A DNA stretch of 64,000 bases from Elusimicrobiota bacterium (GCA_041661185.1 JBAZUV010000004.1:9987-73986); one strand, 5' to 3'. Shown: positions 3,112 through 48,176, counted from the stretch's first letter. Notes: generated by a model not told the origin, from the sequence alone. Numbers and translations are program-made.

Positions 3112-3975
3112 TCACAGGCGGATCTCCTGTCCCTCGCGCGCGGCGAAGCACTCGAAATCTCCGCCGAGAGAGCGCACATGGTCCTGCGCGCGTCCGACGA
3201 CCGCGTCGATCTCCTCGTCGGACCGGTCCGGATCGAGGTGGAAGAGCGCCAGGCGCCGGACCTTTGCGGCCGCGGCAAGCTCCACGGTATCGCGCCAGCG
3301 GCTGTGGCCCCAGCCGCGCTTGCTCCGATAGTCGTCGTCGTCATACTGGGCATCGCAGATGAGCAGGTCCGCTCCGGAGCAGAACTCCGCGACCTTGCGG
3401 TCCTGCCCGGAGAAGAAATCCCTGCCGTCGCCCAGGGCGCGGTGGCACTCATGGTCGGTCAGATAGACCACGCAGACGCCGGGGAAATCGAACCGATAGG
3501 CCATGTCCACGCCGGGATGATTGGTGAAGAAGGTCTTCACGGGCACGCCGCCGGCCTCGAAGTCGCCGGCGATCTTGCGGAAATCGATCTTCGCGGCCAT
3601 GTCCACGAATTCCACCGGGAAATAGTTCTTCCCCATCTGCCGCTGGAAGACTTCTTCAAAGTCGGTCCCCGCGCTCTGCGCGCTATGGATGCGGATCTTG
3701 TTGGCGGGCAGATAGGCGGGCACGAAGAAGGGCCAGCCCTGCAGATGGTCCCAATGCGTGTGCGTGATGAAAAGGTCCATATCCAGGGGCTTCTTCCCAA
3801 ACTCCCGGGACAGGCTGCGGCCGAGCTCCCGGATGCCGGTGCCGCTGTCGCAGATGAAAAGGCCTCCGGGATGCCGGATCTCCACGCAGGGCGTGTTCCC
3901 GCCGTAGCGCACGGTATGGGGACCTGGGACCGGAACGGAGCCGCGCACTCCCCAGAAGCGGACCTGGATGCTCAT
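3112..3975 (-). CDS. MBL-fold metallo-hydrolase
   Basis: 287 aa with the HxHxDH motif (FITHTHWDHLQGW) and downstream His/Asp ligands. There is a 4-nt ATGA overlap with the upstream response regulator. Confidence 0.8.
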   Translation of the reverse strand: MSIQVRFWGVRGSVPVPGPHTVRYGGNTPCVEIRHPGGLFICDSGTGIRELGRSLSREFGKKPLDMDLFITHTHWDHLQGWPFFVPAYLPANKIRIHSAQSAGTDFEEVFQRQMGKNYFPVEFVDMAAKIDFRKIAGDFEAGGVPVKTFFTNHPGVDMAYRFDFPGVCVVYLTDHECHRALGDGRDFFSGQDRKVAEFCSGADLLICDAQYDDDDYRSKRGWGHSRWRDTVELAAAAKVRRLALFHLDPDRSDEEIDAVVGRAQDHVRSLGGDFECFAAREGQEIRL

Positions 3976-4349
3976 GGTTCCAACAATTTCTTGACGGCCA
4001 GGAACAGCTCGTCGGCCGTGTAGGGTTTGGTGAGATAACCGTCCGCTCCGGCCTGGAGCGCGGCCTTGCGGTCCACGGGATAGGACTTCGCCGAGGAGAT
4101 CAGGATCTTCACGCCCTTGAATTGCTCGTCGGCGCGCAGGACCTGGCAGACCTCGAAGCCGTGCATCCCCGGCATCATGAGGTCCAGAACGATGAGATCG
4201 GGCCGGTGCGCGCGCGCCTGCGCCACGCCTTTGATCCCGTCATAGGCCGTGAAAACCTCGTAGCCGCCCGCGCGCAGGCATTCCGAGAGGAAATCAACGA
4301 TTTCCATATCATCGTCAACGACGAGGATGGTTTTCATGAAAAAAGTCAA
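3972..4349 (-). CDS. Single-domain response regulator (CheY-like receiver)
   Basis: MKTILVVDDD, LIVLDLMMPGMHG, ISSAK, DGYLTKP motifs; the start may be the MKTIL codon at 4337. Confidence 0.85.
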   Translation of the reverse strand: MTFFMKTILVVDDDMEIVDFLSECLRAGGYEVFTAYDGIKGVAQARAHRPDLIVLDLMMPGMHGFEVCQVLRADEQFKGVKILISSAKSYPVDRKAALQAGADGYLTKPYTADELFLAVKKLLEP

Positions 4350-4450: not shown

Positions 4451-7400
4451 CTAGTGCATGGAGTGCAGTCGCTCGATGCGCTGGATCGTGTCGGGATGCG
4501 TGACGAAAAGGCGGAAGAAGATATCGTCTCCCGGCCCTACGACCCAGCGGCTGAGCCGGTCGAACTCCAGCTTCCAGCCCGCTCCCCTGAGCTGTTCAAA
4601 GGGATCGACCGTCATCCATGGAGAGCGCGCCGCGATCAACGGCAGTTCCTCGGCTCGGAGTTCGAAATTCTGCGGCTGCCAAGCCGTCAGAAGCCCCAGG
4701 CCCAGCGCGAGCGCGTCAGGATCCCGGGTCAAAAGAGCGCCGTCCTCATCCGCGCCTCCCTCCCGGATGCGCGAGGAACCCATCTGAAGAAGCTGGGCCA
4801 TGATCGGCGCCCAGAGCGCCGCGAACACCTTGAGCACGCCGAAGGCCGCGGCCGCGGAGACCGGCTCCACGGATTCAGGCTTCACTCCCGCCGAAATCTT
4901 GGGATGCTTCACGGCGGAGCTCCGATGCGCCTTGTTTCCGGTCAGGCGCGCCCAGCCCGACTCAATGCTGCCCAAGATCCACAGCACCCAGGAGGCGCTT
5001 AAAGCGACGGCGGCCGTCAGGCTCTCGGAAACGGCGCCGATCACCATATCGCGGTTCATGACATGGCTGAGTTCATGGCCGAGTATCCCGCGCAGGACCC
5101 TCACGCCCAAAGCCTTCAGCTCGGAAGGGGCAGCCTCTGCCACGGCCGCGCGCAGCGCAGCGCTCCCGGTTTGCCGCGAGACTCCGCGGATAGAATCGCT
5201 GATGGCGGAGCGGAACGCGTCGAAGGGGATTCCGGAAGGGTCGGACTGGTCGATCAAGCGCAGGAGGCCGTTCCTCAATCCCTCCGGGTCCAGGAGCATG
5301 CGCTCGATCTCCGGGGTGACGCCCACGACCGCCTTGCTCGGGCTCAGCCCCGCGGCGAAAGCATTAGGCACGTCCATGGGCGCTTCGATGATCTCCGGCA
5401 TGGGAATCGGCTTGCGGCCCTTGGCCTCCAGGCCCTTGTTGATGATGCCTCGAAGCTCCCGCACGACCTGGAACACCTCGGGAGCGTCTTCCTCCGAGAG
5501 GGGACCGGCCTTCATCATCTTCATGATCAGCTTCGGACTGAAATAGACCTGCAGGCCGATGAGCGCGGAAGCCGCGCCCAGATGCGCCAGAAAAGCGGTC
5601 CAGCCGAACACGGTCGCGCTGAGAAGAGCCCCGAAAGCGCCGAGCCCTCCCAATGCCAGAACGGTCTTGAACCAGTAATGATGCTCCGTACGAACCGTCG
5701 GGGCATGCTGGACCGGCTGCTTTGCAGGCTCGGGCCGCGTGGAAGGCGCTGGATTGCCCGCAGGCAGGAGCCGGCCAAGGAGACGCTCCATCCAGACGGC
5801 GGAACGATGAGGAAGGAGCGTCAGCACCGCGAACGTGACCGGCGCGGCGAAACCGGTCGCCGCCGACCAGAGCGCCGCGACCGTGAAGAGCGCGTCGAAG
5901 ACCCGGGTGCGGCCGAAAAGAACCCAGGCGATCACCATGGGAATGATCCCTGCCGGGGAGTAGCCCGTGGCCAGGGCGAAGATCGCTCCAAAAAGCGCCC
6001 AGGAATACTCCGGAAAGCGCATCCCCGGCATCTGGAAAGGCTTCCCGCTCTCAGCGGAGCGGATGACGGCTCCCAGGAAGAACGCGAGCGTGGCCATGGC
6101 CGGGACAGCGGTCAAAGCCGCCAAGCCCGCCGGCGTCAACGACCCGGCCGCTGAAACGCCCATGAGCATCCGAGGAAGCTTGCCGGCCAGCCAGGCAGCG
6201 GCGCTGCCGAGAATGCCCGGCGCTCCTTGGCCGATAAAGGCCTGTCCTGCGGCAGTCGCGGGACCTCCGGCTGTTATCGCCAAAGAAGAAAGCGTCGTGC
6301 CCATAAGCGCGGGCGCGAGAGCCAGAAGCGCGCCGAGGTACGCGCCGATCAGGACATCGAGCGCGAGCTTGACTCCCCCCAAGCGCGGGCTGTCCCTCAG
6401 AAAAAGACGCCAGCGCGCGTAAAGCGCCATGGGCAGGACGAAGACTCCCGGGCTTAAGGCCCAGAACGCGGCCGCGGGAACGATGCCGAAAATAGAAGGA
6501 AGGAACATCACTGCCGCGCCGTGCAGGAGATAGGCCGCCGCGGCCGCGGCCAGGGCCCGCGCCAATGAGAGACGGGCTTCAGCTCCGGGGCTGAGCCTGG
6601 CCGTGGAAACAACAGGCTCCGCCTTGGCCGCGGGCCCGACATGTCCGCCGTGATAAGCCTGGAACTGGAAAGCCTCGGAACGGCCGGGAACCGCTTGGGA
6701 AACAGGCGCAAGCGCATCGCGCAGGTCCGCGTCATCCAAGAGCGCGGAACGATCCGGGAGCAGGCCTTGCAAGAAGCGAGTCGTGGACTCGGGGCCTGAA
6801 TCGGCCAGCAGATGGACATTGGACAACCGCGGGTCCGCGGACTCGCCTACGGCCAGAGCCGTTGCCCGCGGCAGAGCCCGGGCCATAGCGGCATCCTGGC
6901 CCCGGGGACCGAAATCATCGCCGAAGATCAGGATGTCTTTCCGGGAGATGAGCTTCTGCTTCTGCGCCAGCCAAAAGATTTCGCGCGCCCCTCCCCCTTT
7001 GTCGGCGCGCGCCACCCAGATCTCAGGCGCGCCGCGTCCCTGCGCAGGATAGCTGAGCACCACGCGATAATCCAGGGGATAGCCCGCCGCCAGGAACGCG
7101 GGAGAGAACGCCTCATAGAGCCGCAGGACCTTCTGGTCGTCGTACCAGTCTTCGTCGGTCATCTTCAAGGCGCGGGCATGCTCCTTGAGCAACGCCTCGA
7201 TGCGCAGAGCCTCCGGGCCCTTGTCCGCGGGCCTTGAAAGGACCGGCCCTCGCGGCCGCTCGCCGCCGGCCCCGTACTGATAGAGCTCCGCCCCTCCGTC
7301 CGTGGACAAGATCATGCCGGCCCGGACGTCCGGCGGCAAGCGGTCCATGAGCAGGCTCGAAAGCCCCCAGCCCCCGCCCGTGAGCGGACGATTGCTGGCG

Positions 7401-10400
7401 AATGCTATACGAACCCCCGCGGCCTTGAGCCGCCGCAGGAGTTCGACGCGCTCGTCGGATACCGGCGAGCCGATGCCGTCGGGATTATCCATGAAGGTCT
7501 TGTCGTAGTCGAGGATCACCAAGGCCGGCGGATGAGCGCGGAAGCTCTTGATGAGCGCTCCCTGGTCCGCCTGAGGAAGGCGGGGAGAAGAGACCGCCAA
7601 GCCCAGCCCCGCGAGCAGGGCGGCCAAGCCCTTCTTGGCGCGATAAGCCCAGGAGATGGACGTAGGCGCCTCTCCGGTGCGCTCGTGCATGGAGTTCCAA
7701 ATGAAGAATGCCGCGACGGAGAGCCACACGAGCACGCCCACGGCGACGGCAGCCGCCGTCGGCAGGAAAGCTGCCGAAAGCGTCAAGGGCAGGGCCGCGG
7801 CCCATGCCCCGAGCTTCACGGCCCCCGAAGCCTTGCGCGCCAGGAACTTCCCTTCCGCGAAGTCCACCTCCACGCTGTCGCCTTCCTGGATGCGGCCTTC
7901 AAGCTCCGCGTCCACGAACGCGTCGTAGACCTGGCGCTCGATCATCTGCTTAAGAGGCCTCGCGCCGTAGATGCGGTTCGCGTCGCTGGAAGCCTCGTCG
8001 ATGATGCGCTTGCGCGCGGCCTCGGTGAGGGAGGCCGTCATCCTCTTGAGCCCGAGGATCTTGGAGAAGTCGGCCAAACGCAGGTCGAGGATCTTCTCGT
8101 AGCCGGCCCGGTCCAGATCCGAGAAGACCAGGACGTTGTCCGCGCCGATGCGGTTGAAGAACTCGGGGGGCACGGCCTTCTTGAACGCATCCAGATAGCG
8201 CTGATGCCGCAGTTCGCCGACGGGCGGCGTGGACATGGGACCCGGCTGAGAGATGCTTCCTCCGAGGTTCGAGGTCATCAGGATGATGGTGTTGGAGAAA
8301 TCCACCACATGCCCCTGCCCGTCGGTCATGCGGCCGTCCTCGAGCACCTGGAGGAATATCTTGAGCACGTCGGGATGCGCCTTCTCCACCTCGTCGAGCA
8401 GGATGACCTGATAAGGGTTGCGGCGCACGGGCTCGGTGAGCTGGCCTCCGTCCTCGTAGCCCACGTAGCCGGGCGGAGCGCTGATGAGCCGGCTGACGTT
8501 CTGCTTCTCCATGTACTCGGACATGTCCAGCCGGGTCATGCTGGCCTCGGACTGGAAAAGGAAGCGCGCCAGGGAGCGCGCCAACTCGGTCTTGCCGACG
8601 CCCGTGGGGCCGAGGAAGGCGAAGACGCCGATGGGCTGCTTGGGATCCTTATAGCCCATGCGCGCGCGCCGCACGGCGCGCACCACGGATTCCACGGCCG
8701 CATCCTGGCCGATCACCGCTTTCTTGAGATCCTCGTCCAAGCGCCCCAGCATGGCCTTATCATCCTTCGAGAGCTCTTGGACCGGGATGCCGGTGCGCAG
8801 GAACACCTCGAAAGCCGCGTCCGCGGGCAGGACCTCCTTCTTGCGGCTCTCCTTGCCTGAACGGCCGGATTCCTCGACCTGGAGCTGGACCTCGCCGGCC
8901 GCGTCGTCCATGAGATCGAGCGCGGAGTCCGGAAGGCTCCGGTCCTTGAGATAGCGCGCAGCCAGACGCACGATCTCCCGGACGGTCTCCGCGGGGATGG
9001 AGACTCCGTGCTTGTCCTCATAGCGGAACTTGACGCCGGAGAGGATGTCGACGGCCTCCTGCTCGCTGGGAGCATCGAGCCGCACCTCTTGGAAGCGGCG
9101 GGCCAAGGCGCCGTCCGCCTCGATCTTGCGGTATTCCGAAAGCGTGGTGGCGCCGATAACCGAAACCTCGCCGACGAGCGCTTCCTTGAGCATGCTCGCC
9201 GCGTCGGTCGAGCCCTCGCTGTTCCCAAGCCCAAGAATGGTATGGAGTTCGTCGATGAAGAGGATGACGCGGCCGTGGGAGTTCTTGGCCTCCCGGAGCA
9301 CGTCCTTCATTCTCTGCTCGAACTGCCCGCGCAGAGTGGTCCCGGCCAGCATCGCGCCCAGATCGAGCTTGACGATGGACTTGCCGTAGAGCGAAGGGAT
9401 CTCCCCGGCCGCGATGCGCTGCGCCAAACCCTCCACGATCTTGGTCTTGCCCACGCCCTTCTCTCCCGTGACCACGGGATTGTTCTTCTCCACCCGGCCC
9501 AGGACCTTGACCATCTGCCGGATCTCCTGGTCGCGGCCGATGAGCGGGTTCAAGCGTCCCGCAGCGGCTAAAGCCGTGAGGTCCACTCCGAATTTGTTCA
9601 GGTTCGGGAACTCCGAGAGCCCGAGCTTGGGATAGCCCTTATCCGTTCCGGCCGGGACGATCGGCGGAGCCTTCTTCTCAGGAATCGGCGCGAAGCTGCC
9701 TTCCTCTCCCACGATGAGGTCGTCATCATCGACAAACGCAGACGGATCCTCGGGCTGCAGAAACGCTTCATCGGCATGGCCCAATTCCGAGATCGCGAAC
9801 TCCCGCAGATGCTCGAAACTCCTGCGCGCCTCCAGCGACCCGGCTCCCTGCCCGGGCTTCGCCGCATCCAAGAGCTGGACCATCGACGTCAAAACATCCT
9901 TTGAAGGCGGCTGAGGCGCCGCCCCGACGGAATAAGAAGCCCCGTTCAGGTATTCCCTCAGCCTCGACATCTGGTCCCGGGTCTGGACCACGCCCGTCTC
10001 TCCCAGAGGGCGCCCGGCCAATCCCTTTTCAAAGAAGCTCAGCAGGTCGGAGATCACCCACAGCGCCGCGTTCCCGCGCAATGCCGAGGCCTGCCCCTCA
10101 TTGGGATGCGCCCGCCCGAAGAGCCCCCGGTAGCGCTCCAGCATGCCCACGGCCTGTTCGGCGCGGTAGAAGGCCTGCAGATGAGCGTTCTTGCCGTTCT
10201 CGTTGAGAAGGATCGCGACATGGATCAGCAGGGAGTTGGCTGTTTCATCGTCAAAATGCAAGTTCACGGCGCCGGGCACGCGGAGATTGCCGAGCGATTG
10301 AATCTCCACGATCATCTTCGCGCCGTTATGCAGACGGACCCGCCTTCCCGTTTTATGGGATCCCGCCTCACCCGCCGCATGCTCCTGGAGCAGAACCATC

Positions 10401-11668
10401 AGCGCGCCGTAGGCTTCCAGGCGGTATCGCCCTTCGGAAGAAGCGGAATCCTCGTTCTTGGCCAAGGCCGTCAGCATCCCTTGGAAAGATTCAACAGCCC
10501 CGCGAGAGAAGCGGGCCGGCGCATGGCCGAGGTCTTCATACGCATCCTGGATCTGGGAGCGCAAGGACTGGAACAGCTCGCGCTCCTTGGAACCCGCGGG
10601 CAGTCCCTCAACGTGGGCCGCGCTCAGATCCATCAGCGCATTGAGCGCCGCGGCATTGAAGAGGATCTCCGCCTGCTCCTGGTCGGGATGCTGCTCTCCG
10701 AATATCTCCCGGTAGCGTTCATAGTCTTCTCTCGCGCCGGCGAAAAATAGCATGGCGGACAACGCTCCTTTCGCGCCGGCGGCCATGCCCGCGATCCCCT
10801 TGCGCACCTCGGCGCGCACGGATCGTCCGTCGAAGACCTCTTTTCCTGAACGCTCGACCTTCCCTTCGCTCAGGTCGAGCAAAAGGAAATCGCCGCTGCG
10901 CAGCGCCGCCAAGCGTCCCTCTCCAGCCAGTATCGCGAGCATCCGCCGGAGCTTGTCCCTGCCCCAGCCGGCGGACACTGCCGCAGACTGCGCCGCCAGC
11001 ATGACCGGCGAACCGGGTTTGACCCGATTGCTCAGGTCCATGTAAAGTATCCGCGCATCGCGCGCGTCATAGGAGGAAGCCTCCGGCGCATCGCCCGAGA
11101 CCGCGCCGGGAGTCAGGTCCCCCGGCAGCGGCTCGGGCTGAGCATCCTTGACCGCATCGAAGAGGGCTCCGGCCGCGGTCTTCGCAGTCGAGAGGTCCGC
11201 GCGAAGGATGGAAGGCAGAGAGTTCACGAACGCCTGCAGCCGACGGACGCTTGCGGCGCCGCGCGTCTTTGCGAAGATCAGCGCCTTCGCATCCGCGCTC
11301 GCCGCCGGCGCTTCGACCGCGGGAGCGAGCAGCGTCGGCGATCCCTCCCTGGGAACAAACCCCTGCGGCAGGACCCCAGGGGCCTTGACGTCGACTCTCT
11401 GGATCGGAAGGATGGAAGACCTCTCAAAAAATGAACTCTCCGGCATGATCTTGACGCCCTGCATAGGCGCGCCCGACATCGCCCCATTCCCAAACGTCCC
11501 GGGAACCGCCAAAGGAATGACCATTACGTCCGCAGCCGGAAGTTTGACGGTCTGGGCGGCGGCTTGCAGCGCGCCCAGGCCCGGACAGGTCCAGATCAGC
11601 GCGGCGCACATGATGATGGAAACAGCTCGAGGAATCTCCGCCCGGATCTTCAGAAAATATGGCTTCAT
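4451..11668 (-). CDS. 2405-aa multidomain protein: N-terminal hydrophobic segment, Clp_N-like repeats, ClpA/B-type double AAA+ (D1+D2), 2 TM, HAD-like phosphatase domain, ~8 TM, C-terminal HtpX/M48 zinc-peptidase domain
   Basis: A single stop-free frame of 7218 nt. D1 has Walker A GEKGVGKT (aa 735) and Walker [10 protein letters not shown]2 has Walker A GPTGVGKT (aa 1019), Walker [12 protein letters not shown] and sensor [10 protein letters not shown]. The HAD motifs are ILDYDKT, ASNRP and FGDDFG..DAAM. The M48 motifs are [28 protein letters not shown] and a C-terminal [11 protein letters not shown]. Confidence 0.7.
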
Positions 11669-11848
11669 GGCATCCCTTGGAACGGTTCGCGCAATAGACG
11701 TTCAGGCGCGCGCGTACGCTAACAAATGAAACCGTGAAACAATCAGGTCCAGGGTGCCTGATTTTGGCGGGCGAAAAGTCCTACATCCTATAGGTCTGAT
11801 GACCCAATTTGAGAGGCCTTTCCGTGTGGAGAAAATATCTCGAATTCA

Positions 11849-11894
11849 GGAGCGTGTCACCAGATCACGACAAAGGATTATTCAGACACGCTCC
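11849..11894. repeat. 46-bp hairpin element (copy 2), overlapping the last codons and stop of the amidase gene
   Basis: ggagcgtgtcaccagatcacgacaaaggattattcagacacgctcc has the same arms as the 4404-4450 copy; the amidase stop codon lies inside the loop. Confidence 0.45.
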
Positions 11895-14432: not shown

Positions 14433-14512
14433 GGTGCCAGGCGTCAACTTGATTGAAATTCAACTTGCTCGGCCGAGCAAGTTGAATTTCAATCAAGTTG
14501 ACGCCTGGCACC
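14433..14512. repeat. 80-bp perfect palindromic element (copy 1) with GGTGCCAGG / CCTGGCACC termini
   Basis: ggtgccaggcgtcaacttgattgaaattcaacttgctcgg|ccgagcaagttgaatttcaatcaagttgacgcctggcacc is exactly self-complementary and identical to 59681-59760. It lies between the pseudouridine synthase and the kinase genes. Confidence 0.8.
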
Positions 14513-14533
14513 GGCATTCGGCATACTGGCGGC

Positions 14534-15844
14534 ATGTTCCGGCTTGCATTCCTCCTTCTGGCTGGACTCGCCCAAGCCTCGCCCCCGGCTGGGTCCAACA
14601 GTCTTTCTCTCATCCGCGATTCGTCGGAGCCCTCGGAAACAGCCTCCAGCCGGACCCCTGACGCCGGGAACGCGGTCAGCCCCGAAGATAAGGAAAGCTC
14701 GGAAGTCCCCCTGGAGAGAGCCAGGACGCTGCTCCCGAATGCGCCGCTGCTCAGCGGCGCACGCGTCGAATTGCCGCAGACGCCCCAGTCCTCCCACCCC
14801 CCTTCCCAGCCTCCGCCGCCTCGCAGCGGCTTCGCGGCCGCGCCCTCGGATGCCTGGCAGCTGCTCGATGCCGTGGCCGAGCCGCGTCCCGACGCGGCTC
14901 CATGGACCATTCTCGCGCTCCTGAGCCTGTCGACTCTCGCTTGCCTGGGACTTTCCCGGATCCGCCGCAGGCCGGTTGAAGAACCGGCGTCCGCGTCCCC
15001 GGCGGACAACGATCTCCTCGCCGGGAAATACGAACTTTTGCGCATCATCGGCAAAGGCGCGATGGCCGATGTCTGGGAAGCCGCGGACCGTTCGCTCGCC
15101 CGCCGAGTGGCCGTCAAGAAGATCACCTCGCAGCAAGCGCATCCTATCGATGAGGCCCGCGCCTTGGCCTCCCTTCATCATCCTCATATCCTGAGCATCT
15201 ATGAGGTGCTCGATGTCCCCCAAGGGCTCTACCTGGTCTTCGAATTCGTCTCGGGAAAGACCCTTCAGCAGCTACTCGTGGAAGAACACCGCTTGGATCT
15301 TGAGCGCGCCAAAGCCGTGCTCCTGCCGGTCTGCTCGGCCCTGGCGGCCGCTCACGACCGCTGCATCGTGCACCGGGACCTCAAACCCGCAAACATCATG
15401 CTTTCCGACGATGGGAATATCAAGGTGATGGATTTCGGCATCGCCTTGAGGATCGGGACATCGCAAGCTCCTGCCGTTGGAACGGATGGAGTTTCCCATC
15501 CCGGCAGCAGGGCTTCCTCCTTCGAAGGGACGCCGGCCTACATGGCCCCGGAAGCGCAAGACGGCTGCGTGAGCCCGTCCTGCGACGTCTATTCCCTGGG
15601 AGTCTGCCTCTACGAGCTCTTATCCGGCGAGCGTCCTTTCGGGCAGGTCTCCCTGCCCCAGAAGCTCGTGCGCGCCTATCCCCGACTCAGCACGCGCGTC
15701 CCGGGCCTGCCGAAGGACGCGGATGCGCTCATCGACGCGGTCTTGGACCCGGATCCCCGCACGCGGATGAAGGATGTCCGCGCTTTCCGCCGAGTATTGG
15801 AATCTATCGTGTTGGAAACAGAAACAGTCCGGCCGCGCCCATGA
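14534..15844 (+). CDS. Hanks-type Ser/Thr protein kinase, membrane-anchored
   Basis: Kinase motifs are GKGAMADVWEA, VAVKK, HRDLKPANIML, DFGIA and APE. It has an N-terminal signal/TM, a Pro-rich spacer and a TM (WTILALLSLSTLACLGL) ahead of the kinase domain. The ATG at 14534 (MFRLAFLLL) is preferred over the ORF start at 14498, which lies inside the palindrome. Confidence 0.85.
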   Translation: MFRLAFLLLAGLAQASPPAGSNSLSLIRDSSEPSETASSRTPDAGNAVSPEDKESSEVPLERARTLLPNAPLLSGARVELPQTPQSSHPPSQPPPPRSGFAAAPSDAWQLLDAVAEPRPDAAPWTILALLSLSTLACLGLSRIRRRPVEEPASASPADNDLLAGKYELLRIIGKGAMADVWEAADRSLARRVAVKKITSQQAHPIDEARALASLHHPHILSIYEVLDVPQGLYLVFEFVSGKTLQQLLVEEHRLDLERAKAVLLPVCSALAAAHDRCIVHRDLKPANIMLSDDGNIKVMDFGIALRIGTSQAPAVGTDGVSHPGSRASSFEGTPAYMAPEAQDGCVSPSCDVYSLGVCLYELLSGERPFGQVSLPQKLVRAYPRLSTRVPGLPKDADALIDAVLDPDPRTRMKDVRAFRRVLESIVLETETVRPRP

Positions 15845-18800
15845 CCCAGCGCTTGAAGACGTCCCTCACGGCCTGCCGCCAGCCCCGCGCCGGCGGAAGG
15901 TCCGCGGACCTTGCCGCGAAAAACCCGTAACGCTCCCGCGCCCGGCTCATCATATCCCGCGACTGCGCGATCACCCGCTCCGGTTCCTTGAGTTCCTCTT
16001 CCAGCGCCGCAAGCGCGCGCTTCTCGTCGATGAGCCCCGCCCCAGCCTCCAGAAGACCCTGTCCGGCCAAAGGAGCGGCGGTGCGGGCGATCAAGGACTC
16101 CAGGTAGAAGCTGTAGCCGTCGGGCAATCCATCGGCCTTCTCCCGAAGCACCGCCGCCATCTTCTCGATGAGCAGCGCGAATTTCCCGGTGGTATGTTCG
16201 GCCGCGACCGAAGTCCCGGAGAACGTGCGGTAAAGAGGCTTCCCCTGCCACAAGACCGTGGTGGGAGCGTCCTTGGCTTGCTGGGCGAGCTTGGAAGCGA
16301 AGGCCGAGGCGATCTCATAGGGATTGGGCATGCCGAACGCCACGGCTCCGCCGTAGTCCACCCAGGAAAGCGCCGCGGAATCCGCGGAACCCCTTGCCGA
16401 ATAGAAAGCCAGGGCCCCGGATTTATCCACGGCTCCCACGCGGATGGCGAGTTCGGCCTTGGCCGGGACATCCAGGCTTCCGGGCGAGGGCCCTTCATTG
16501 CCCGCCGCGGCGATCACCGTGATGTTCTTGAGCCTGAGCGCATCCACGAGCCTGGCGAACGGAGAATCCGCCCTCCCCTGACCGCCGAGGCTCAGGTTCA
16601 CGATCATCGGAGTCTTAAGCGGGTCTTGGACCAGGCTCGCGGCCCATTCCAGCCCGGCCATGACCATGGCATCGGTCCCGCCGTCCGCGCTCAGGACTTT
16701 CCCGACCGCGAAGTCCACGTCGGGCGCCATGCCCTCGTAGGGAGAGCCCTCCACGCTGCGTCCGCCCACGATGCCCATGCCGTACGTCCCGTGGCCGAGA
16801 GCCTCTCCATCGACCGCGTTCCCCGGAGCCGTAAAATTCCTCTTGCCCTTGATGCGGTCCCCGGCCAAGGCCGGATGCGAAAGATCCGCGCCCTCGTCGA
16901 GATAAGCCACGAGCACGCCCCGGCCCGTCAGGCCCGAAGCCGCCCGTATCTCCGGGATGCCGGAAAGAGGGCCGGTCTCATTGAGCAGAGGATAGACCGG
17001 CCGCGCCTTATGCACCCTCCAGCCCTTGGACTCCAGCTCCGCGGTGAAGGCCAGGACCTGCGTATCCGGGACATTCACCCATAGCGCCTGCGCATTCGGG
17101 AAAGCCGCCTGCAAATCCGCCTCGAAACGCTCCATGACGGCCGGCTCCAAGCCGTAACCCGCGGCCGCGCTGAGCGCCGCGCTCTTGGCTCCGCCGCGAA
17201 GATCCTGGAAGCGCTCCACGCGCGGCGCAAGAAGGCCTTCTTTCGTGTTCGCGCGCGGAAGCTCGAGTATCAGATGCAGAGGCCCAAGATTCGGGTCCAC
17301 GCCCGCCACGCCCGCGCCGCCGCGGTCCTGGACCGGAGTGGGAAGATCGAGCGGGATATCCAGGATCTTGGCCAGCGTCGAGACCAGCTCGCCCAAAGCC
17401 CCCGGCCGGCCCGCCGCGGCCTTATGCGCCTGGACGAAGCCCGCGGCGCTCTCGCGCAGAGGCGGCTTCTTCAACCGCGTCTTGAACGCCGCGGACCGGT
17501 TCGCGGTCCGGAAGAACTTCGAGATCGTGCGCGTCAGCGCGAGGTTCCCAGGACCCGCCGCAGCCAAGAGAGCGCAAACGGCTCCGTCCGTGATCAGGGC
17601 CTGGTTCAGGTTGGCGAGCTCCGTGAGCGACGCCGCGGCCAGATGGCGGATATTGCCGCGCTCCGAGGCGTCCGCGACGCGGCCGGCCAAAGCCTCCACG
17701 ACCTCCGGCGAAGCGCGCCCGCCCAGCTGTCCGGCCAGCCACACGGCCGTAAATCGCGTCTTCTTATCAGGATTCGTCATCTCCGCGCGGATCCTGGGCA
17801 GGCCGGAGACATCCCCATGCCGGGCCAGAGCATAGGCGGCATAAAGCCCGACGTCGGGCCGCTCATCGCCGCACGCCTTGCGCAGAAGTTCATCGGCGCC
17901 GTAATGCGGGATCTCGGCCAAAGCCAGGAAAGCCGTCTGCCGCACGCGGCCGTCCTCATCGCTCAACGCCGCCGCGGCCAAGTCCAGCACGGCCTCCGGC
18001 GCCTTGAGGTTCATGAGCGTGAAGGCCGCATAGAAGCGGACCACCCAGACCTCGTCTTTGAGCGCCTGCCTCAGTTCCGGGGCCGCCTGCGCCCGGAGCT
18101 GCGCGAAGCGGGCCTGGACCGACTGCTCATCCTGCGCGGAAACAGCCTCAGGGACCGCCTCATCATCATCCTCGGAAGGTTCTTCGGAGGCGCCTTCCGC
18201 GCGAGCGTCGCGCGAGCGAGCCGCGTTCTGCCGGCCGACCTCCGCGGCGCCATTAAAGACCCGGTCCTCCAGGCGCTGGACCTGCGCGGCGCGGTCGATC
18301 CAAGCCCAGGAAGGAACAGGGCTCGCCGCGGCCAATCCCGCGGCAGCGGCGAGCACCCTGAAAAGCTTAAAGCGCGAAACGCCCGGCGCCGGGCCGAAAG
18401 TCTCTGCCGCGAGCTTGACGGCCGCCAGCGCGTCCACGAAACCCGCCCCCTGGAAAAAAACAGGGACGCGCATATCCACCGCGGAACGCATAAGCAGCAT
18501 CTTCACGCAGAAAGACAGCTGATCGCGGAAATACTCGTACGCCGCGGAGCCGGCGCCGATGACCTTGCGGACGGCCTGCTTGACCAGCAATGCGATGGCC
18601 GCCACCTGGGGATTGGCCATGGAGGACCCGGCCATGCGGGTATGGAGCCCGTCCTCCGTATTGGAAGGGCCCGGCGGCATATCCTTGGAACGGACCGAGG
18701 TGATGCCCTGCGAATAGACGTCCTTGTTCCCCGGAAGAGTGGTCACGTCCCCGCCCAGCGCCGTGATGTCCGGCTTGAGGACCCAGCGCGTGAGTCCGTA

Positions 18801-21800
18801 GCGCTTGAAGCGGCCGTCCAATGCCGGCCCCACCGAAGAGTAGAACGCGGTCTCCGGTACGCCGTCGTCGAGGCTTTTGGCCGCGGCGCCCACGTCGATC
18901 ATGTTCCGGGCGTTGGCGGGCTGGCTCAAGGTCTTATTGAACGGACCCGCGTTCCCGCTCGATCCCGTGCCGATGAGCGGCTCCCCGGAAGCGCTCTTCT
19001 GCTCCAAGAGATGCGAGAAAAACTCAGCCAAGGGCGCATCGCTGTCCCCGGGACTGCCGAGGCTGACGCTGACGACGTCCGAACCCCACTTCATGGCATC
19101 CACGGCCGCGGCCATGATGTCGCCGTCGGAAGCGCCCTGCCCGGCCTGGGAGAAGACCTTGCCCATGCGTCCCTCGGCCGCGGGCGCCATGCCCTTGTAA
19201 AGAGGCCCGTTGGCATAGGAGATGCCGGCCTTATGCGTGCCGTGCCCGCTCCAATCCTCGGGTCCCTCGCCCACGAAATCGATGCACTGCAGGATGCGGT
19301 CCGCGAAATCAGGATGCGTCACATCGAGCCCGGTGTCGATATCGTAGATGCGTCCGCCTTCGCCCCGGATGCGGAGCTTCCAGACCGGCACGACGTCCTG
19401 GATGATCCCGCTCTCGAGGAGCTGGACGCGGTAGCCTCCGCGGGAAGCTCCGAAGCGCACGCCGCGCGCGCCGGAAAGCCGCTTGAGCACCTTCGAGTAG
19501 GCCTTGAGCACGCTGACATAGATGCGGTTGTCTCCCACGTCCCGGCCGAAGACATGTCGGACCCGCAAGCCCGCCTGGACGAAGCGCGCGCGCTCCTGGT
19601 CGTTGAAGCCGAAGGAGCGCAGAAGATCGTCCTGGGCCGGCGCGGAAGGGTCCGTATCGAGGTTGAGCTGCGAATGAGGAAGGCTCACCCCTTTGGCGGG
19701 AGTCAGCCACAGGTTCAGGCGCGGCTCCATCTTTCGCGCCACGATCACGTGCCCGCCCTCGGCAAGGTCCACGCGCTGGACCTGGAACTCGCCGTTGTCC
19801 GAGGAAGTCCAGAACCGGAAAACCCTTTCGACCAGCGCGACTCCGGGATCGGAGGAATGGAAAGGAAGGAGCACGATCCCATGGTCCTGCAGCCCCGCGT
19901 ACAAAGCCTGCAAATAGTCTGCCAGGCCCACGTCCTGGAGCTGGGTCCCGGAGAACTCGTTCATCATCTTGTTCAAGGCCGCGGAGACTCCCTCGACCGA
20001 TCCATTGCCCCCCACATGCACTCCGATGTTGTCGCCCAGAGTCTTCAATCGCAGAGCCAGCGGCCCGCCGGACTTGAACCCTTCGCGCGAGCTCGAGCGG
20101 TTGCGCTGTTCGAGCCGATAGGCCTCGTCGATGGAGCGCAGGGCCTGCTCAAGCCGTCGGTTCTCCGCGGAGTCCTCCAAAGGCAAGGAGAGATGGACGT
20201 TCGGGAGCACGATCACCCGGTAGCGGCCGGCATGCTCGGGCGCCTGGAGGAGCCTCTTGAGCTCCGAAGGCTCCACGCGGGCGTTCTCCCGGGATGCGAA
20301 CCCGGTCATGTCCGCAGGATCGGCGACCACGAGCCCTTTCTCCGGCAGACCGGTATAAAGACCCCGCACGCGCGCCCGTCCCTCGGAGAGCACGTCATAG
20401 GCCGAGGGGTTCAGGAGCTCCGAGCTGGAAGGCTCGACGATGAGCACGGGATAAGGAGCCCCCAGACGCAGGGAGACCTGCGCCTCCTTCAAGACGCGTT
20501 CGAGCACCGGGATGCGCAAGGACTTGAGCCACTGCCGGCTGTGCCATTCCCCGGCGCGGGCCAAGGCCTCGTCGCTCAGTCCGCGGAAGAATCCCCCGAG
20601 TCCCTTGCTGCGCCGAGCCAAGGGTTCGCGCCGGCCGTTCTGCAGATAATGCCCCATCTCGTGCTTGAGCACGGCCTGGAAGAGCCCGGGCGCGCGCGCA
20701 AGCTCGGGCCGCAGATAGATCGCATCGCCCTGCGACACGCCGAAAGCGAAACCGGAGAAGCGCCCCCTCTGCGGCCGGTAGATCCGCAGGATGCCGCGGC
20801 CGGGAGCGTATCCCAGCAATCCGGAGATCACGCTCGGATGCAGGCCCATCTCCAGGAGCTGGGCTTTGGCGAAATCCCAGAACTCGCGGTCCGAGATATC
20901 GGCCCGAAAGAAAACAGCCCAAGAGAACACGGCAAGGTCATAGAGCGCCCAGCCTGAGAAGACCGCGCCCATCACCCCCGCGGCCGCCATCGTGACCCGC
21001 AAAGGCTCCGCGAACGCGGCAAGAGCCTCCACCAGCCAGGGGGAGTGGATCAGCGCCGCATGCGCAAGGACCCAGCCGGACCCAAAGAACACGGCTGCGG
21101 CCGTTATGAAAACCGCGGCCGACAACGCCGCCAGCACCGCCGGGAACAGCACTCTGCGATACCGGATCTCCTGCTGCGCGGACTTCCGAGCCGCAAGCGC
21201 CGGGACCTGCCCGGAAGTCCGGCCCGCGCCTACAACTCCGTCATCCCGGTCCACGTCTACAACTCCGTCATCCCGGCTGACGACAGCGCCCTGCTCGTCA
21301 TTCCGGCGAAAGCCGGAATCCAGGATAAGGCTGGACCCCGGGTCAAGCCCGGGGTGACGACGGCCGACTGCACCCCGCCCTTCGCCGGGAGTCTGAATCT
21401 CCAGACCCCCTGCTTGGCCAAGTTCTCCTTGCCCGCCGAGACGGCGCGTGAAATCCTCGGCCGCGGCCTGCTGGGAAGCTTCGATCCCTCCATCCGCAGC
21501 CTGATCCAAGAATGAAGACGGCCCGCGCAGAGCCTTCCATAAACGCCCGGCTCCGCGGACGAACAAACGCACGACCCCTTTGCTCGCTTCATCCTTGCGG
21601 CCAACTTCGTCATCTCTGCTCGCGTCTACAACTCCGTCATCCCGGCGAAAGCCGGGACCCAGCAGTAGCCTGGACCCCGGGTCAAGCCCGGGGTGACGAG
21701 AGTAAAGGGTCTTGCCATTCACTGCGCCGGAAGCTTCCTGCTTATCGGGAAAGATCTCCATCTTTGGGACATCCACAGATACGCCCACGCCTGAACCCGC

Positions 21801-22085
21801 AAGCGGCTGGAGCTCGTTGGACACAGGAAGCGTCAGCAGAAAAGGCAGTGCGTTCCGGGGAAGAAAGATGGCCGGACCGGAAGGGATGCCGGCAGCCGCG
21901 ATCTGCTGGACGGGAAGCGCTTGACCTGCGGGAACGGCCTGCGCAGCGCCGGAAACCGCGCTCTGCGCCCAAAGCTCATAGGAGCGCGCTCCGGGAGACA
22001 GCAGTATGAGCGCCGCGCAGAGCGTGCCCGCGACTGTCTTTTTACAACGGACTGCGAAATTATTCCTATCCAATGCCCGGCCCAA
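15804..22085 (-). CDS. Giant membrane-anchored multi-protease: HExxH metallopeptidase-like motif, two subtilisin S8 domains, HEAT repeats; true start probably near ~21100
   Basis: S8 #1 has the triad DIDTG, SGHGTHKAG, GSSMANPQVAAIA. S8 #2 has LDEGAD, LGHGTYG, AAGNEG, SGTSVAAEHTTG. HEAT/PBS repeats lie between them (VRQTAFLALAEI..., TRFTAVWLAGQLG...). KHEMGHYLQNG follows a 2-3 TM block. N-terminal residues ~60-300 translate the hairpin-repeat DNA (RHPGLDPGS...GFRRDD twice). Confidence 0.7.
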   Translation of the reverse strand: MGRALDRNNFAVRCKKTVAGTLCAALILLSPGARSYELWAQSAVSGAAQAVPAGQALPVQQIAAAGIPSGPAIFLPRNALPFLLTLPVSNELQPLAGSGVGVSVDVPKMEIFPDKQEASGAVNGKTLYSRHPGLDPGSRLLLGPGFRRDDGVVDASRDDEVGRKDEASKGVVRLFVRGAGRLWKALRGPSSFLDQAADGGIEASQQAAAEDFTRRLGGQGELGQAGGLEIQTPGEGRGAVGRRHPGLDPGSSLILDSGFRRNDEQGAVVSRDDGVVDVDRDDGVVGAGRTSGQVPALAARKSAQQEIRYRRVLFPAVLAALSAAVFITAAAVFFGSGWVLAHAALIHSPWLVEALAAFAEPLRVTMAAAGVMGAVFSGWALYDLAVFSWAVFFRADISDREFWDFAKAQLLEMGLHPSVISGLLGYAPGRGILRIYRPQRGRFSGFAFGVSQGDAIYLRPELARAPGLFQAVLKHEMGHYLQNGRREPLARRSKGLGGFFRGLSDEALARAGEWHSRQWLKSLRIPVLERVLKEAQVSLRLGAPYPVLIVEPSSSELLNPSAYDVLSEGRARVRGLYTGLPEKGLVVADPADMTGFASRENARVEPSELKRLLQAPEHAGRYRVIVLPNVHLSLPLEDSAENRRLEQALRSIDEAYRLEQRNRSSSREGFKSGGPLALRLKTLGDNIGVHVGGNGSVEGVSAALNKMMNEFSGTQLQDVGLADYLQALYAGLQDHGIVLLPFHSSDPGVALVERVFRFWTSSDNGEFQVQRVDLAEGGHVIVARKMEPRLNLWLTPAKGVSLPHSQLNLDTDPSAPAQDDLLRSFGFNDQERARFVQAGLRVRHVFGRDVGDNRIYVSVLKAYSKVLKRLSGARGVRFGASRGGYRVQLLESGIIQDVVPVWKLRIRGEGGRIYDIDTGLDVTHPDFADRILQCIDFVGEGPEDWSGHGTHKAGISYANGPLYKGMAPAAEGRMGKVFSQAGQGASDGDIMAAAVDAMKWGSDVVSVSLGSPGDSDAPLAEFFSHLLEQKSASGEPLIGTGSSGNAGPFNKTLSQPANARNMIDVGAAAKSLDDGVPETAFYSSVGPALDGRFKRYGLTRWVLKPDITALGGDVTTLPGNKDVYSQGITSVRSKDMPPGPSNTEDGLHTRMAGSSMANPQVAAIALLVKQAVRKVIGAGSAAYEYFRDQLSFCVKMLLMRSAVDMRVPVFFQGAGFVDALAAVKLAAETFGPAPGVSRFKLFRVLAAAAGLAAASPVPSWAWIDRAAQVQRLEDRVFNGAAEVGRQNAARSRDARAEGASEEPSEDDDEAVPEAVSAQDEQSVQARFAQLRAQAAPELRQALKDEVWVVRFYAAFTLMNLKAPEAVLDLAAAALSDEDGRVRQTAFLALAEIPHYGADELLRKACGDERPDVGLYAAYALARHGDVSGLPRIRAEMTNPDKKTRFTAVWLAGQLGGRASPEVVEALAGRVADASERGNIRHLAAASLTELANLNQALITDGAVCALLAAAGPGNLALTRTISKFFRTANRSAAFKTRLKKPPLRESAAGFVQAHKAAAGRPGALGELVSTLAKILDIPLDLPTPVQDRGGAGVAGVDPNLGPLHLILELPRANTKEGLLAPRVERFQDLRGGAKSAALSAAAGYGLEPAVMERFEADLQAAFPNAQALWVNVPDTQVLAFTAELESKGWRVHKARPVYPLLNETGPLSGIPEIRAASGLTGRGVLVAYLDEGADLSHPALAGDRIKGKRNFTAPGNAVDGEALGHGTYGMGIVGGRSVEGSPYEGMAPDVDFAVGKVLSADGGTDAMVMAGLEWAASLVQDPLKTPMIVNLSLGGQGRADSPFARLVDALRLKNITVIAAAGNEGPSPGSLDVPAKAELAIRVGAVDKSGALAFYSARGSADSAALSWVDYGGAVAFGMPNPYEIASAFASKLAQQAKDAPTTVLWQGKPLYRTFSGTSVAAEHTTGKFALLIEKMAAVLREKADGLPDGYSFYLESLIARTAAPLAGQGLLEAGAGLIDEKRALAALEEELKEPERVIAQSRDMMSRARERYGFFAARSADLPPARGWRQAVRDVFKRWVMGAAGLFLFPTR
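21225..21362. repeat. GC-rich GNRA-hairpin cluster 2 (includes a 3x direct repeat of tctacaactccgtcatcccgg extending into cluster 3)
   Basis: It contains gtcatcccggc..., gtcattccggcgaaagccggaatccagg and ctggaccccgggtcaagcccggggtgac. Confidence 0.55.
21625..21690. repeat. GC-rich GNRA-hairpin cluster 3
   Basis: gtcatcccggcgaaagccgggacccag ... ctggaccccgggtcaagcccggggtgac (an inverted pair). Confidence 0.55.
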
Positions 22086-36840: not shown

Positions 36841-38364
36841 TCAAACCTGGATGTCCGCGAGCTTGCGGACGACCCCCATGCCGATCGACATCCACACCGC
36901 GCAGAAGCCGATGGTGATGACGCCGATGACGCTGAAATAGTAGGCGTTCATGACCTCGGGCTGGAAGGCCCACATGAGCCCCATCATGGCCCAAGGCATG
37001 ATGCCCACGACCACGGCCTGGATGCGCTGCTGCGCGGTCAAGGACTGCGCCTTCTCCTCGAGCTTGCCCTCGTCGCGGATGTTCTCCACGATGCGGTCGA
37101 AGAGCTTGGTGAGGTTTCCTCCCACCGCGCGCTGGATGATGACGGCCTTGATGAGATAGGAGAGCAGGCGGCTGGCGATGCGCTCCTCCATGCCGAGCAG
37201 GGCCTTCTCGAAGGGCGTGCCGAGCTGGTAGTTCTTGAGCACGAGTCCGAACTCCTCGGAGATGGGAGGCACGAGATCGCGCTGGACGAGCTCGAAGCCC
37301 TGCACGATGTCCAAGCCCGACTTGAGCGCGTTGGACATGAGGATCATGGCGTCCATGAGCTGGGCCTCGACGCGCTTGCCTCGGCGCAGCCTCAGCGTAT
37401 TGAGTATCCATTCCGGCGCCTTGATCCCCAGATAGACGCCCGCGCAGGAGAAGATCATGAACCCGAAAATATTGAACGAAAGCACCCCGAGCATCAAGCC
37501 CACGATCATGGGCGTGAGGATGAGGTACTGGACCTTCATGGCCATGAACTGGCGGTTGAATTCATTGGCCCAATGCTTCGCCTTCTGCGCATGCTGCTCA
37601 AAGAGCCCGTAGACCGCGTCGGACTTGGCCTGTCCGTAGAGCCAGCCTGCCAGGAAAACGAACAGAGAGCCCAGCATCATGAGGAAGAGTATCCCGCCCT
37701 GGGAAGCCGGCGCGTCCTTGCCCGGAGGATTGAAGCCGCGCGGAGAACTGCGCAGGATCTGAAAGGCCTGGTTGGTGAGCGTGCCTACGGCCATCACGGA
37801 TTCCTGATAGCGCCGGGCGTCCTGGCTGGTCAGGGCGTCCAAGACGGATTCCATCTCGCGCAGGATGAGATCGTAGACGGCCAGGAGCGCGCGGCCGCGG
37901 CCGCCCAGGGAATCTCCCAGCTTCGCGCGGTAGAGACGGTCCAGCGACATCTGGAAGCGGATGCGGCTGTCCTCATAGTCCTTGACCAGCGCGCCCGGCG
38001 GGGTGAGCTGGCCGTTGAACTCCGGCGGGAAGGTCTTGCGCGTGTGCTCGAAGAACTCATAGAGCACCGAGACCGGCGCCTGCCAAAGCTGGGCCTCGTT
38101 GAGCACTCCCTCGTCGGGATCCTGCCAGACAGGCCGGCTGACCATGGCCTCCAGGATGCCGTCGATCCACGCCGGAACCTGGAGGTTCGGGTCCCGGTCC
38201 TTCTTGAAATAGTGGTAGATGTACTGGGCGCGCGCCTCGGCCCCGTTGTCGGAGTTGACCAGATAGTCGATCTGCTTCTTGCTGAACTGCGCGCACGCCG
38301 GCGCGGGCGCCAGCGCCGCCAAAAGCCCCGCCAGCACAAAGAAGCAGGCCGCCTGGGGATACAT
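36841..38364 (-). CDS. tadB: TadB-like T2SSF platform protein with ~330-aa N-terminal signal peptide + periplasmic extension
   Basis: The start is reassigned to the ATG at 38364 (MYPQAACFFVLAGLLAALAPAPACAQ), because the ORF upstream of it translates hairpin repeats. The C-terminal 180 aa carry T2SSF motifs (SNALKSGLDIVQGFELV..., QRAVGGNLTKLFDRIVENIRD). Confidence 0.75.
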   Translation of the reverse strand: MYPQAACFFVLAGLLAALAPAPACAQFSKKQIDYLVNSDNGAEARAQYIYHYFKKDRDPNLQVPAWIDGILEAMVSRPVWQDPDEGVLNEAQLWQAPVSVLYEFFEHTRKTFPPEFNGQLTPPGALVKDYEDSRIRFQMSLDRLYRAKLGDSLGGRGRALLAVYDLILREMESVLDALTSQDARRYQESVMAVGTLTNQAFQILRSSPRGFNPPGKDAPASQGGILFLMMLGSLFVFLAGWLYGQAKSDAVYGLFEQHAQKAKHWANEFNRQFMAMKVQYLILTPMIVGLMLGVLSFNIFGFMIFSCAGVYLGIKAPEWILNTLRLRRGKRVEAQLMDAMILMSNALKSGLDIVQGFELVQRDLVPPISEEFGLVLKNYQLGTPFEKALLGMEERIASRLLSYLIKAVIIQRAVGGNLTKLFDRIVENIRDEGKLEEKAQSLTAQQRIQAVVVGIMPWAMMGLMWAFQPEVMNAYYFSVIGVITIGFCAVWMSIGMGVVRKLADIQV

Positions 38365-38382
38365 CCTACGTTCCTTCTTTTT

Positions 38383-38490
38383 CGTCACCCCGGGCTTGAC
38401 CCGGGGGCCAGGAGCACGGCCAAACGACTTCCCCTGGATCCCGGCTTCCGCCGGGATGACGAATTTATGGGCTTTCGCCGGGATGACGAG
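38383..38490. repeat. GC-rich hairpin cluster 6
   Basis: gtcaccccgggcttgacccggggg, ctggatcccggcttccgccgggatgac, gggctttcgccgggatgac. Confidence 0.6.
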
Positions 38491-38515
38491 GAGCGCGAAG
38501 GAGACGGCCTCGCGC

Positions 38516-47963: not shown

Positions 47964-48176
47964 GACACAGGTTCTACGCACACAAGAGAGTTTAATATCA
48001 GCCCTTTTCTGATTTGTTGATTCGCTGTTAAAAAGATGTTGCGCCGGCCCGTTCCTGAGGCCTGTCTGAATAATGGTATCAGCGCTCATAGGCTCGGGCA
48101 TGGGCCCTTCTGCTCACCCCTCCCCCGCCATAGGACCCACCAGAACCTAGGACCAAAGACTATCTGGTGCCTATCT

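Follow-up and report, generated by a model that had tools for sequence, protein, structure and literature searches.

A single reading frame from an Elusimicrobiota bacterium joins a Clp-type double AAA+ unfoldase, a HAD-IIB module and a membrane M48 peptidase

A 64,000-nucleotide stretch of DNA from an Elusimicrobiota bacterium (GCA_041661185.1, JBAZUV010000004.1:9987-73986; hereafter the window) carries on its minus strand, at 4451..11668, an open reading frame (ORF) with an ATG start that encodes 2405 amino acids plus stop. Its product is a Clp class I ATPase, a HAD-IIB phosphatase and a member of peptidase family M48 in one polypeptide; it is not an HtpX equivalog, a ClpB/ClpC protein, a ClpP-docking unfoldase or an FtsH. 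We give about even chances to the view that the ORF encodes a membrane-integrated, ATP-dependent 'extract-and-cut' protease which arose by in-frame fusion of two neighbouring operon genes. This function is argued from gene fusion and gene neighbourhood, which, like the domain identities and the integrity of the motifs, are directly observed. The original prediction had described one stop-free frame of 7218 nt coding for 2405 residues; the ORF listing and translation of the window bear this out and place it on the minus strand, and all the motifs it quoted were located in the order given.

The unfoldase comprises a first AAA+ module with its lid (D1, residues 690-940; 8849..9601, minus strand) and a second with D2-small (D2, residues 965-1277; 7838..8776, minus strand), both delimited by Pfam, NCBIfam and motifs. 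D1 possesses Walker A GEKGVGKT (735-742), Walker B ILFIDELH (802-809) and the arginine finger ALARRFQ (854-860), and D2 possesses Walker A GPTGVGKT (1020-1027), Walker B (1089-1098), an intact pore loop APPGYVGY (1064-1071) and sensor-2 GARPLKQ (1235-1241), such that the ATPase motifs of both rings are intact. Pfam returned AAA at 733-861, AAA_lid_9 at 868-940, AAA_2 at 1011-1174 (E 2e-58) and ClpB_D2-small at 1185-1268, while ClpB, ClpC and ClpA sequences of the PDB were matched at E 1e-124 to 1e-168. With two AAA+ modules bearing Walker A/B motifs, arginine fingers and sensor-2, plus D2-small, the protein belongs to the Clp/Hsp100 class I, as the original prediction of two canonical Clp-type modules had proposed. 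Its further suggestion of a ClpB-like double ring did not hold. The NCBIfam ClpA model aligns continuously over 689-1269, and ClpA models and structures in general align in one stretch, whereas those of ClpB and ClpC align in two, skipping the M-domain. No Clp_N domain was found in Pfam profile scans even at E <= 5, and the Clp_N-like motifs once claimed for the N-terminal region are thereby withdrawn. The architecture, lacking both Clp_N and the M-domain, is that of ClpA and falls outside the ClpB/ClpC subfamily. The aromatic pore-loop residue is present in D2 (GYVG) and replaced by Leu in D1, where the loop at 776-786 reads TLRG against KYRG in relatives. ClpV-like proteins also have D1 loops without this Tyr.

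A transmembrane (TM) hairpin (residues 1284-1328; 7685..7819, minus strand) starts approximately 6 to 8 residues past the end of D2-small. It is supported by hydropathy and by an AlphaFold2 (AF2) model, and is conserved with the relatives L002 and P0035 (L designates loci and P proteins). A HAD-IIB module with a preceding hydrophobic helix follows (residues 1347-1640; 6749..7630, minus strand), assigned by profile, fold and motifs, of which the HAD domain proper occupies about 1365-1640. Motif I is LDYDKTF (1386-1392), motif II AFASNRP (1422-1428), motif III the Lys of ARADKGG (1553-1559), and motif IV lies at 1582-1595; an alignment of the module family conserves DxDxT, T/S-N, K and GDDxxxxxxD. 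Pfam gave only a sub-threshold Hydrolase_3 match (E 0.1). A profile of the family, however, matches trehalose-6-phosphate phosphatase (5dxl) at E 1.4e-6, and the AF2 model (pLDDT 87, pTM 0.80) retrieves 5dxl, 4bnd, 1rkq and 6rme with a Foldseek probability of 1.0, the top 50 matches all being C2-cap HAD enzymes. Motifs I-IV, the Rossmannoid core and the C2B cap place the module in HAD subclass IIB, on the evidence of family alignment, profile and AF2 fold, and the complete HAD motif set noted earlier is confirmed.

The module would be an active phosphatase of the small-molecule type, and the capped fold, as modelled, favours small phospho-metabolites over proteins. The module shares motifs I-IV and fold with HAD-IIB phosphatases such as trehalose-6-phosphate phosphatase, the Cof/YidA-type sugar phosphatases, phosphomannomutase and ISN1, at an identity below 20% to any solved member. 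It differs from these in that its family is always found within large membrane proteins, where a TM hairpin or an LspA-like domain precedes it. Elsewhere it forms the C-terminal end of other membrane proteins, usually behind an LspA-like (Peptidase_A8) TM domain, as in the family members P0036, P0041, P0045, P0048 and P0058. That LspA-like domain has GNxxE in place of GNxxDR, the motif of the first catalytic Asp, but keeps the second Asp, of FNxAD type. We considered whether the hydrophobic segment ahead of the HAD domain might be a third TM helix, which would make the HAD domain periplasmic. This was rejected, since L002 has two tandem HAD units each with such a segment and since, by the positive-inside rule, the TM module that follows has a cytoplasmic N-terminus.

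That following module (residues 1700-1967; 5768..6571, minus strand) is polytopic and family-specific, with about eight helices by hydropathy and AF2, an invariant RDSPRL loop and a SAE(S/T)GxPF motif. The topology predicted by the positive-inside rule has both of its ends in the cytoplasm. Together with the hairpin at 1284-1328, it accounts for the two and then roughly eight TM helices of the original prediction. The C-terminal part is an HtpX-type M48 zinc peptidase (residues 1998-2405; 4454..5677, minus strand), identified by Pfam, NCBIfam, motifs and model. It contains PNAFAAG (2101-2107), HELSH within 2197-2204, a Glu ligand at 2301-2311 and a further motif at 2390-2401; two TM helices lie ahead of HELSH and two more at 2216-2296, making four of HtpX type in total. 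Pfam Peptidase_M48 matches 2099-2403 with 45 bits against a cut-off of 20.3, and NCBIfam HtpX models match 1999-2332. Family membership, as predicted, thus follows from HExxH with the downstream Glu and a Pfam score above the gathering cut-off. The best HtpX equivalog model (NF002839) reaches 125 bits against a cut-off of 412, and we therefore regard the domain as a divergent M48 subfamily and not as an HtpX orthologue. The M48 domain has an HtpX/Ste24 fold, and the AF2 model of the TM module with the peptidase has a pLDDT of 74.6. A phmmer search of residues 1270-2405 against PDB sequences returned only chance matches to myoglobin. In HtpX of known topology the active site is on the cytoplasmic side (PMC9263693). 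By this analogy and the positive-inside rule, the catalytic parts of the AAA+, HAD and M48 domains can all be placed in the cytoplasm.

An exhaustive phmmer search with residues 1270-2405 against 1.84 billion representative proteins returned two separate families and no other protein that spans the HAD and TM+M48 modules. The architecture had been presented as belonging to no described family, which agrees with this result; the orthologues retaining the fusion that were to be sought did not appear among these representatives, all relatives found being split. The ORF is therefore no widespread family; it is a fusion specific to the lineage, and each relative found keeps the two genes apart. Relatives of the TM+M48 module share 40-52% identity, are proteins of 980-1657 aa with their own leader, and sometimes end in an MFS domain. 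In five loci a Clp gene is adjacent to and co-directional with the TM+M48 gene. In L002, a gene that ends with Clp D2, hairpin and two HAD domains stops 121 nt ahead of the TM+M48 gene, whose product P0005 is 48% identical over 840 aa; of the two L002 HAD copies, the second and terminal one most resembles the HAD domain of the window ORF. The Clp gene lies 4 nt upstream of the TM+M48 gene in L084 (a contig that ends with the M48 gene), 8 nt upstream in L098 and about 80 nt upstream in L093, and it overlaps the TM+M48 ORF in L088. L089/L092 and L101 have HAD-module genes ahead of the M48 gene.

Because the same region is encoded by two adjacent genes in relatives, the window ORF constitutes a Rosetta-stone fusion, and the adjacency itself is independent evidence of coupling. 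At the position of the junction or linker (residues 1641-1699; 6572..6748, minus strand; defined by comparison with relatives), relatives have a stop codon, a spacer of 4-121 nt, and the leader of the M48 gene followed by some 200 aa of Ala/Pro-rich sequence. No trace of that leader was found at the window junction in any frame. The simplest history is an in-frame deletion of some 180 leader codons along with the stop codon and spacer before them. A scan of genome contigs with three back-translated patterns, two of them generic M48 motifs, gave only ordinary HtpX genes (24-29% identity) on account of those generic patterns, and was useful only for the clpB-htpX adjacencies in L037, L038 and L050 discussed below. 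None of the literature searched describes a fusion of Clp with M48, CPBP or M50. As a separate observation, L098 has an in-frame TAG at about 5356-5358, in the AAA+ D1 lid (RLAAR*IKDRSLP, where the window has Tyr), for which a sequencing error, a pseudogene and recoding of the stop are all conceivable.

Might the single ORF instead be an assembly artefact, or a recent, functionally irrelevant and possibly decaying deletion, the real unit being a two-gene operon? We think this improbable. In its favour, the architecture is unique among the representatives searched, with all relatives split, and the fused protein is a singleton at 90% clustering. What the junction replaces (stop, spacer and Ala/Pro-rich low-complexity leader) is prone to collapse, and the degenerate D1 pore Tyr and ClpP-docking loop would suit a decaying gene. 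The coding pattern points the same way at one place: GC content follows GC3 > GC1 > GC2 in most 100-codon blocks, with GC3 at 0.69-0.92, and this pattern is weakest in block 1601-1700, which spans the junction (GC1 0.77, GC3 0.69). Against this, 4451-11668 is one uninterrupted frame of 2405 codons; at about 65% GC a random frame is expected to hold approximately 0.025 stops per codon, which by our own estimate gives a chance of about e^-60 for such a length. The fusion is in frame, and the catalytic motifs of all four enzymatic modules are intact. The protein is on record as P0001 ('MAG: AAA family ATPase [Elusimicrobiota bacterium]', where MAG denotes a metagenome-assembled genome) from two contigs, the longer of 246,853 bp, and a MEGAHIT-style contig of 100,168 bp in ENA is 100% identical to the window over 21.7 kb; the same sequence is thus seen in contigs with different boundaries from different assembly records. 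Other covalent fusions of Clp with membrane peptidases in the lineage also speak against an artefact. Upstream of the ORF, a sigma-70-like promoter match (11832..11860, minus strand; consensus match only) lies inside a 210-nt spacer, and a putative ribosome-binding site, AAGGGA, again by consensus, stands a few nucleotides before the ATG at 11668.

The loop by which Clp unfoldases contact their peptidase bears on the history of the protein. In ClpA, ClpC and ClpX, a tripeptide of the D2 loop binds ClpP (PMC8745299). At the corresponding position the window protein reads PPVGELRH (1148-1155), that is VGE, a degenerate version that does not conform to the [LIVMF]-G-[FL] tripeptide of ClpP-dependent unfoldases; the absence of an IGF/L docking loop had been remarked upon in the original prediction and is upheld. 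Relatives read RPMGF (L002), RKMGF (L098), SFGF (L084), RPIGF (P0048) and RRIGF (L088). The retention of IGF-type loops by relatives means that the ancestral partner may have been ClpP. It is possible that the split partners use ClpP and that the fused protein has lost it as a partner; a more speculative reading has the loop dock on the membrane peptidase, with no further need for it once the two were fused. General decay of the protein is argued against by the intact catalytic motifs elsewhere.

Related Clp proteins of the lineage are combined with membrane peptidases in other ways. The Clp giants of L088 and L098 (~1860 aa) carry a CPBP/Rce1-like intramembrane protease behind the same kind of TM hairpin, with all three motifs EExxxR, FxxxH and HxxxN present (WEEAAFR, FFTVLH, HHGVFN). 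In P0004, an Elusimicrobiota protein of 3042 aa, the Clp rings come after an N-terminal M50 domain of S2P type (HETAH, LDG), and P0048 combines Clp with LspA-like, HAD and PD-(D/E)XK domains. With the M48 cases, these fusions and pairings indicate repeated combination of the Clp clade with membrane peptidase domains, which belong to four families. The Clp-CPBP giants (L088 3640-9234, L098 3199-9258) stand directly upstream of the TM+M48 gene, a pairing of two families known as CAAX proteases in eukaryotes. In L107 (7582-17129) a small MerR-family regulator precedes the M50-Clp giant P0004, and PseudoU_synth_2 and two-component neighbours are shared with the window locus. P0003 (2158 aa, JGI metagenome) joins a Ser/Thr protein kinase (16-266) to Clp_N and a double AAA+ Clp, which hints at phosphorylation-linked substrate selection in related systems.

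This record also bears on another explanation, that the two halves are stress proteins co-located without any hand-over of substrate: a ClpP-independent disaggregase or extractase like ClpB/ClpG and an independent HtpX-like quality-control peptidase, joined or co-transcribed only through co-regulation. A canonical clpB gene, with Clp_N and the M-domain lid, does lie directly upstream of a canonical htpX of 288-290 aa in Acidobacteria (L037, L038) and in an Elusimicrobia MAG (L050). The tLST stress island carries ClpK/ClpG, FtsH and the HtpX-like orf15, its Clp and M48 genes being co-transferred (PMC8290217), and the window protein has no ClpP loop. Nevertheless, the protein has neither the M-domain nor Clp_N, the parts that ClpB/ClpG use for aggregate or DnaK targeting, its D2 exit would be kept at the membrane by a very short tether, and the repeated fusions are with four membrane peptidase families and none with other stress proteins. 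We consider independent action unlikely, a little less so than an artefact.

In the extract-and-cut reading, the Clp part would assemble into a hexameric ring, as in Clp ATPases, whose D2 exit face would be held at the inner face of the membrane, since the TM hairpin begins within 6-8 residues of D2-small. The helical N-terminal region, standing in for Clp_N, would select substrates, presumably misfolded or regulated membrane or membrane-associated proteins. The ring would pull and unfold the substrate, and the tethered M48 domains would cut exposed segments at the membrane surface. In the split relatives two polypeptides would do the same job, the IGF-type loop of Clp docking on ClpP or else, as a more speculative option, on the membrane peptidase; the loop would have decayed following covalent fusion. 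E. coli HtpX complements FtsH in membrane proteolysis, according to Sakoh 2005 as cited in PMC8290217.

Several observations weigh against this reading. Enzymes of HtpX type act as endopeptidases without processivity, and we see no enclosed chamber, so that the M48 'chamber' fed by the ring in the original prediction is left unsupported. IGF loops in relatives suggest ClpP, not M48, as the peptidase partner, and the D1 pore Leu and degenerate docking loop could equally reflect relaxed selection. The topology of the N-terminal 312 residues is ambiguous, and the fusion removed the M48 gene's own leader. The covalent fusion is known from assembled contigs of one MAG, and the two contigs that carry it, being identical, may share reads. 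Around two thirds of the informative TM+M48 loci (about ten others) have no Clp gene upstream; one of these, L087, shares its Amidase_3 neighbour with the window. The nearest Clp paralogues, 53-60% identical and ~1090 aa long, occur in a different gene context without M48, and the Clp-M48 association is thus a property of particular paralogues. Two paralogues of 1089 and 1369 aa stand in tandem on one Elusimicrobiota contig (L103, 9001-16498), in a conserved Lip_A_acyltrans ... Abhydrolase context without M48.

Downstream of the ORF lie a single-domain response regulator (3972..4337, minus strand) and an MBL-fold hydrolase (Lactamase_B_2; 3112..3975, minus strand); both are conserved in relatives, the regulator directly behind the TM+M48 gene and the hydrolase after the regulator. 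The two follow the TM+M48 gene in nine loci (the window, L002, L083, L085, L086, L087, L088, L090 and L093), and genes for a HAMP-HisKA kinase and an OmpR-type regulator adjoin them. The MBL hydrolase of L083 gave a faint Apyc1-like match. This neighbourhood raises the prospect of signalling by regulated intramembrane proteolysis, whereby the M48/TM part clips a membrane-bound regulator on an envelope signal, the Clp ring extracts and destroys the fragment, in the manner of RseP and then ClpXP acting on RseA, and output runs through the response regulator and MBL hydrolase. Besides the nine loci and the adjacent kinase and OmpR-type genes, the sister architecture P0004 lends it some support, having an S2P-type M50 domain and being preceded by a MerR-type regulator. 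Yet the locus showed neither a candidate anti-sigma factor nor a candidate regulator substrate, the pair of response regulator and MBL hydrolase tracks the M48 gene with or without a Clp gene, and HtpX-type enzymes are known for quality control and not for signalling. We rate such a signalling role as low in probability, on a level with the artefact.

The N-terminal 690 residues begin with a leader (residues 1-41; 11546..11668, minus strand) which, with its basic n-region, hydrophobic stretch at 15-37 (by hydropathy) and AAAQTV motif, is like a signal peptide or signal anchor. The same leader stands on many unrelated giant proteins of the lineage (P0002, P0004, P0005-P0029, P0035, P0058 and L088 3640-3950), with a shared anatomy of basic n-region, hydrophobic stretch, 'APGxGxYxA' and an end resembling A-x-A-Q-(T/A)-V. 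It is found even before domains that must be cytoplasmic; a cleaved signal, an anchor and a sorting tag are all conceivable. Residues 42-290 (10799..11545, minus strand) match no family and are possibly extracytoplasmic if residues 291-312 (10733..10798, minus strand) form a TM helix. That segment is borderline, with a mean Kyte-Doolittle value of about 1.3 by hand calculation, below the threshold of 1.5 used in the hydropathy scan. An alpha-helical region (residues 313-690; 9599..10732, minus strand) stands where the Clp N-domain would be. The internal duplications predicted there are real: 317-436 and 511-630 are 31% identical over 127 aa, with a pairwise E of 6e-12 without composition correction. 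The region has starts of the form 'ERYRxxFGxxHP' resembling TPR_10, to which the match is weak (E 0.12). No homologues of residues 1-690 were found in a search that was dominated by low-complexity word matches and did not recover the protein itself; a full-length search, similarly dominated, returned only 4 matches.

Further genes of the window include a second giant ORF of 2093 aa (15804-22085, minus strand), 4 kb from the fusion, with a subtilase domain (Peptidase_S8, 916-1215) and HEAT repeats; a Ser/Thr kinase gene (14498-15844, plus strand) lies between the two giants. At 36841-40897 and 44565-48101 (minus strand) are type II secretion system (T2SS) F- and E-type genes, encoding a pilus/secretion ATPase with a CbiA/ParA-like N-terminal part, and a 1178-aa FlgD_ig/CHU_C protein with a type IX (T9SS-type) sorting domain. 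PADLOC gave generic AAA matches only and no defence assignment.

How does the protein compare with known proteases? Like FtsH, it is anchored in the membrane as a single polypeptide and carries, covalently joined, an AAA+ unfoldase and a zinc metallopeptidase with a cytoplasmic active site, and a role in membrane-protein turnover is presumed. FtsH, however, has one AAA module, an M41 ring distal to the membrane and 2 TM helices, whereas the window protein has two Clp-class AAA+ modules, an M48 domain with 4 TM helices and about 8 more, an added HAD domain, and a ring whose exit, not its entry, would be tethered to the membrane. Beyond AAA+ and HExxH there is no sequence relationship, and no M41 or FtsH model was among the matches, so the resemblance is functional. 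Of the FtsH-like ATP-dependent membrane protease originally envisaged, the overall idea is favoured by domain order, intact motifs and Clp-M48 adjacency in relatives; the ClpB-like ring and the chamber fall away. HtpX (M48B) is a stand-alone, ATP-independent enzyme of ~290 aa, whereas the M48 domain here is preceded by a 268-residue TM module and has inserts at 2130-2190 and 2236-2266. The closed barrel of Ste24/ZMPSTE24 (M48A) is not evident in it. With ClpA/ClpC-ClpP it shares the class I double ring, aligned continuously to ClpA, and its relatives carry the [I/M/F]GF loop; it differs in lacking Clp_N, in its VGE loop and D1 Leu, in a C-terminus that runs into the membrane and in an attached peptidase of another class. 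RseP (M50) and then ClpXP degrade RseA sequentially. That system and the tLST island pair a membrane metallopeptidase with Clp, as here, and P0004 fuses M50 with Clp; in both, unlike the covalent window protein, the proteins are separate and the Clp partner works via ClpP or as a disaggregase.

To our knowledge, ATP-driven unfolding is coupled to proteolysis in only a few known ways, through ClpP, HslV, the Lon domain, the M41 domain of FtsH or the proteasome. For the energy-independent peptidases of the membrane (HtpX, S2P, CPBP, LspA), cleavage is generally considered to hinge on whether the substrate is accessible. We tentatively suggest, as a more doubtful extension, that the Elusimicrobiota Clp clade may represent a modular, hitherto unrecognised class of membrane-integrated ATP-dependent proteases. 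Here the double ring would be plugged, by fusion or by the IGF-type loop, onto interchangeable M48, M50/S2P, CPBP/Rce1-like or LspA-like peptidases instead of ClpP; the window protein would be the fully covalent form with its redundant loop decayed, and the HAD module would act, while threading proceeds, on the substrate or a phospho-tag. For biochemistry and cryo-EM, the fused protein and its split counterparts offer natural constructs. Should the extract-and-cut reading prove true, a Clp ring wired to such peptidases would be a new solution for extracting and cutting membrane proteins and a model for how HtpX-type enzymes obtain unfolded substrate, and the ClpP-docking loop and peptidase partner would be exchangeable in evolution.

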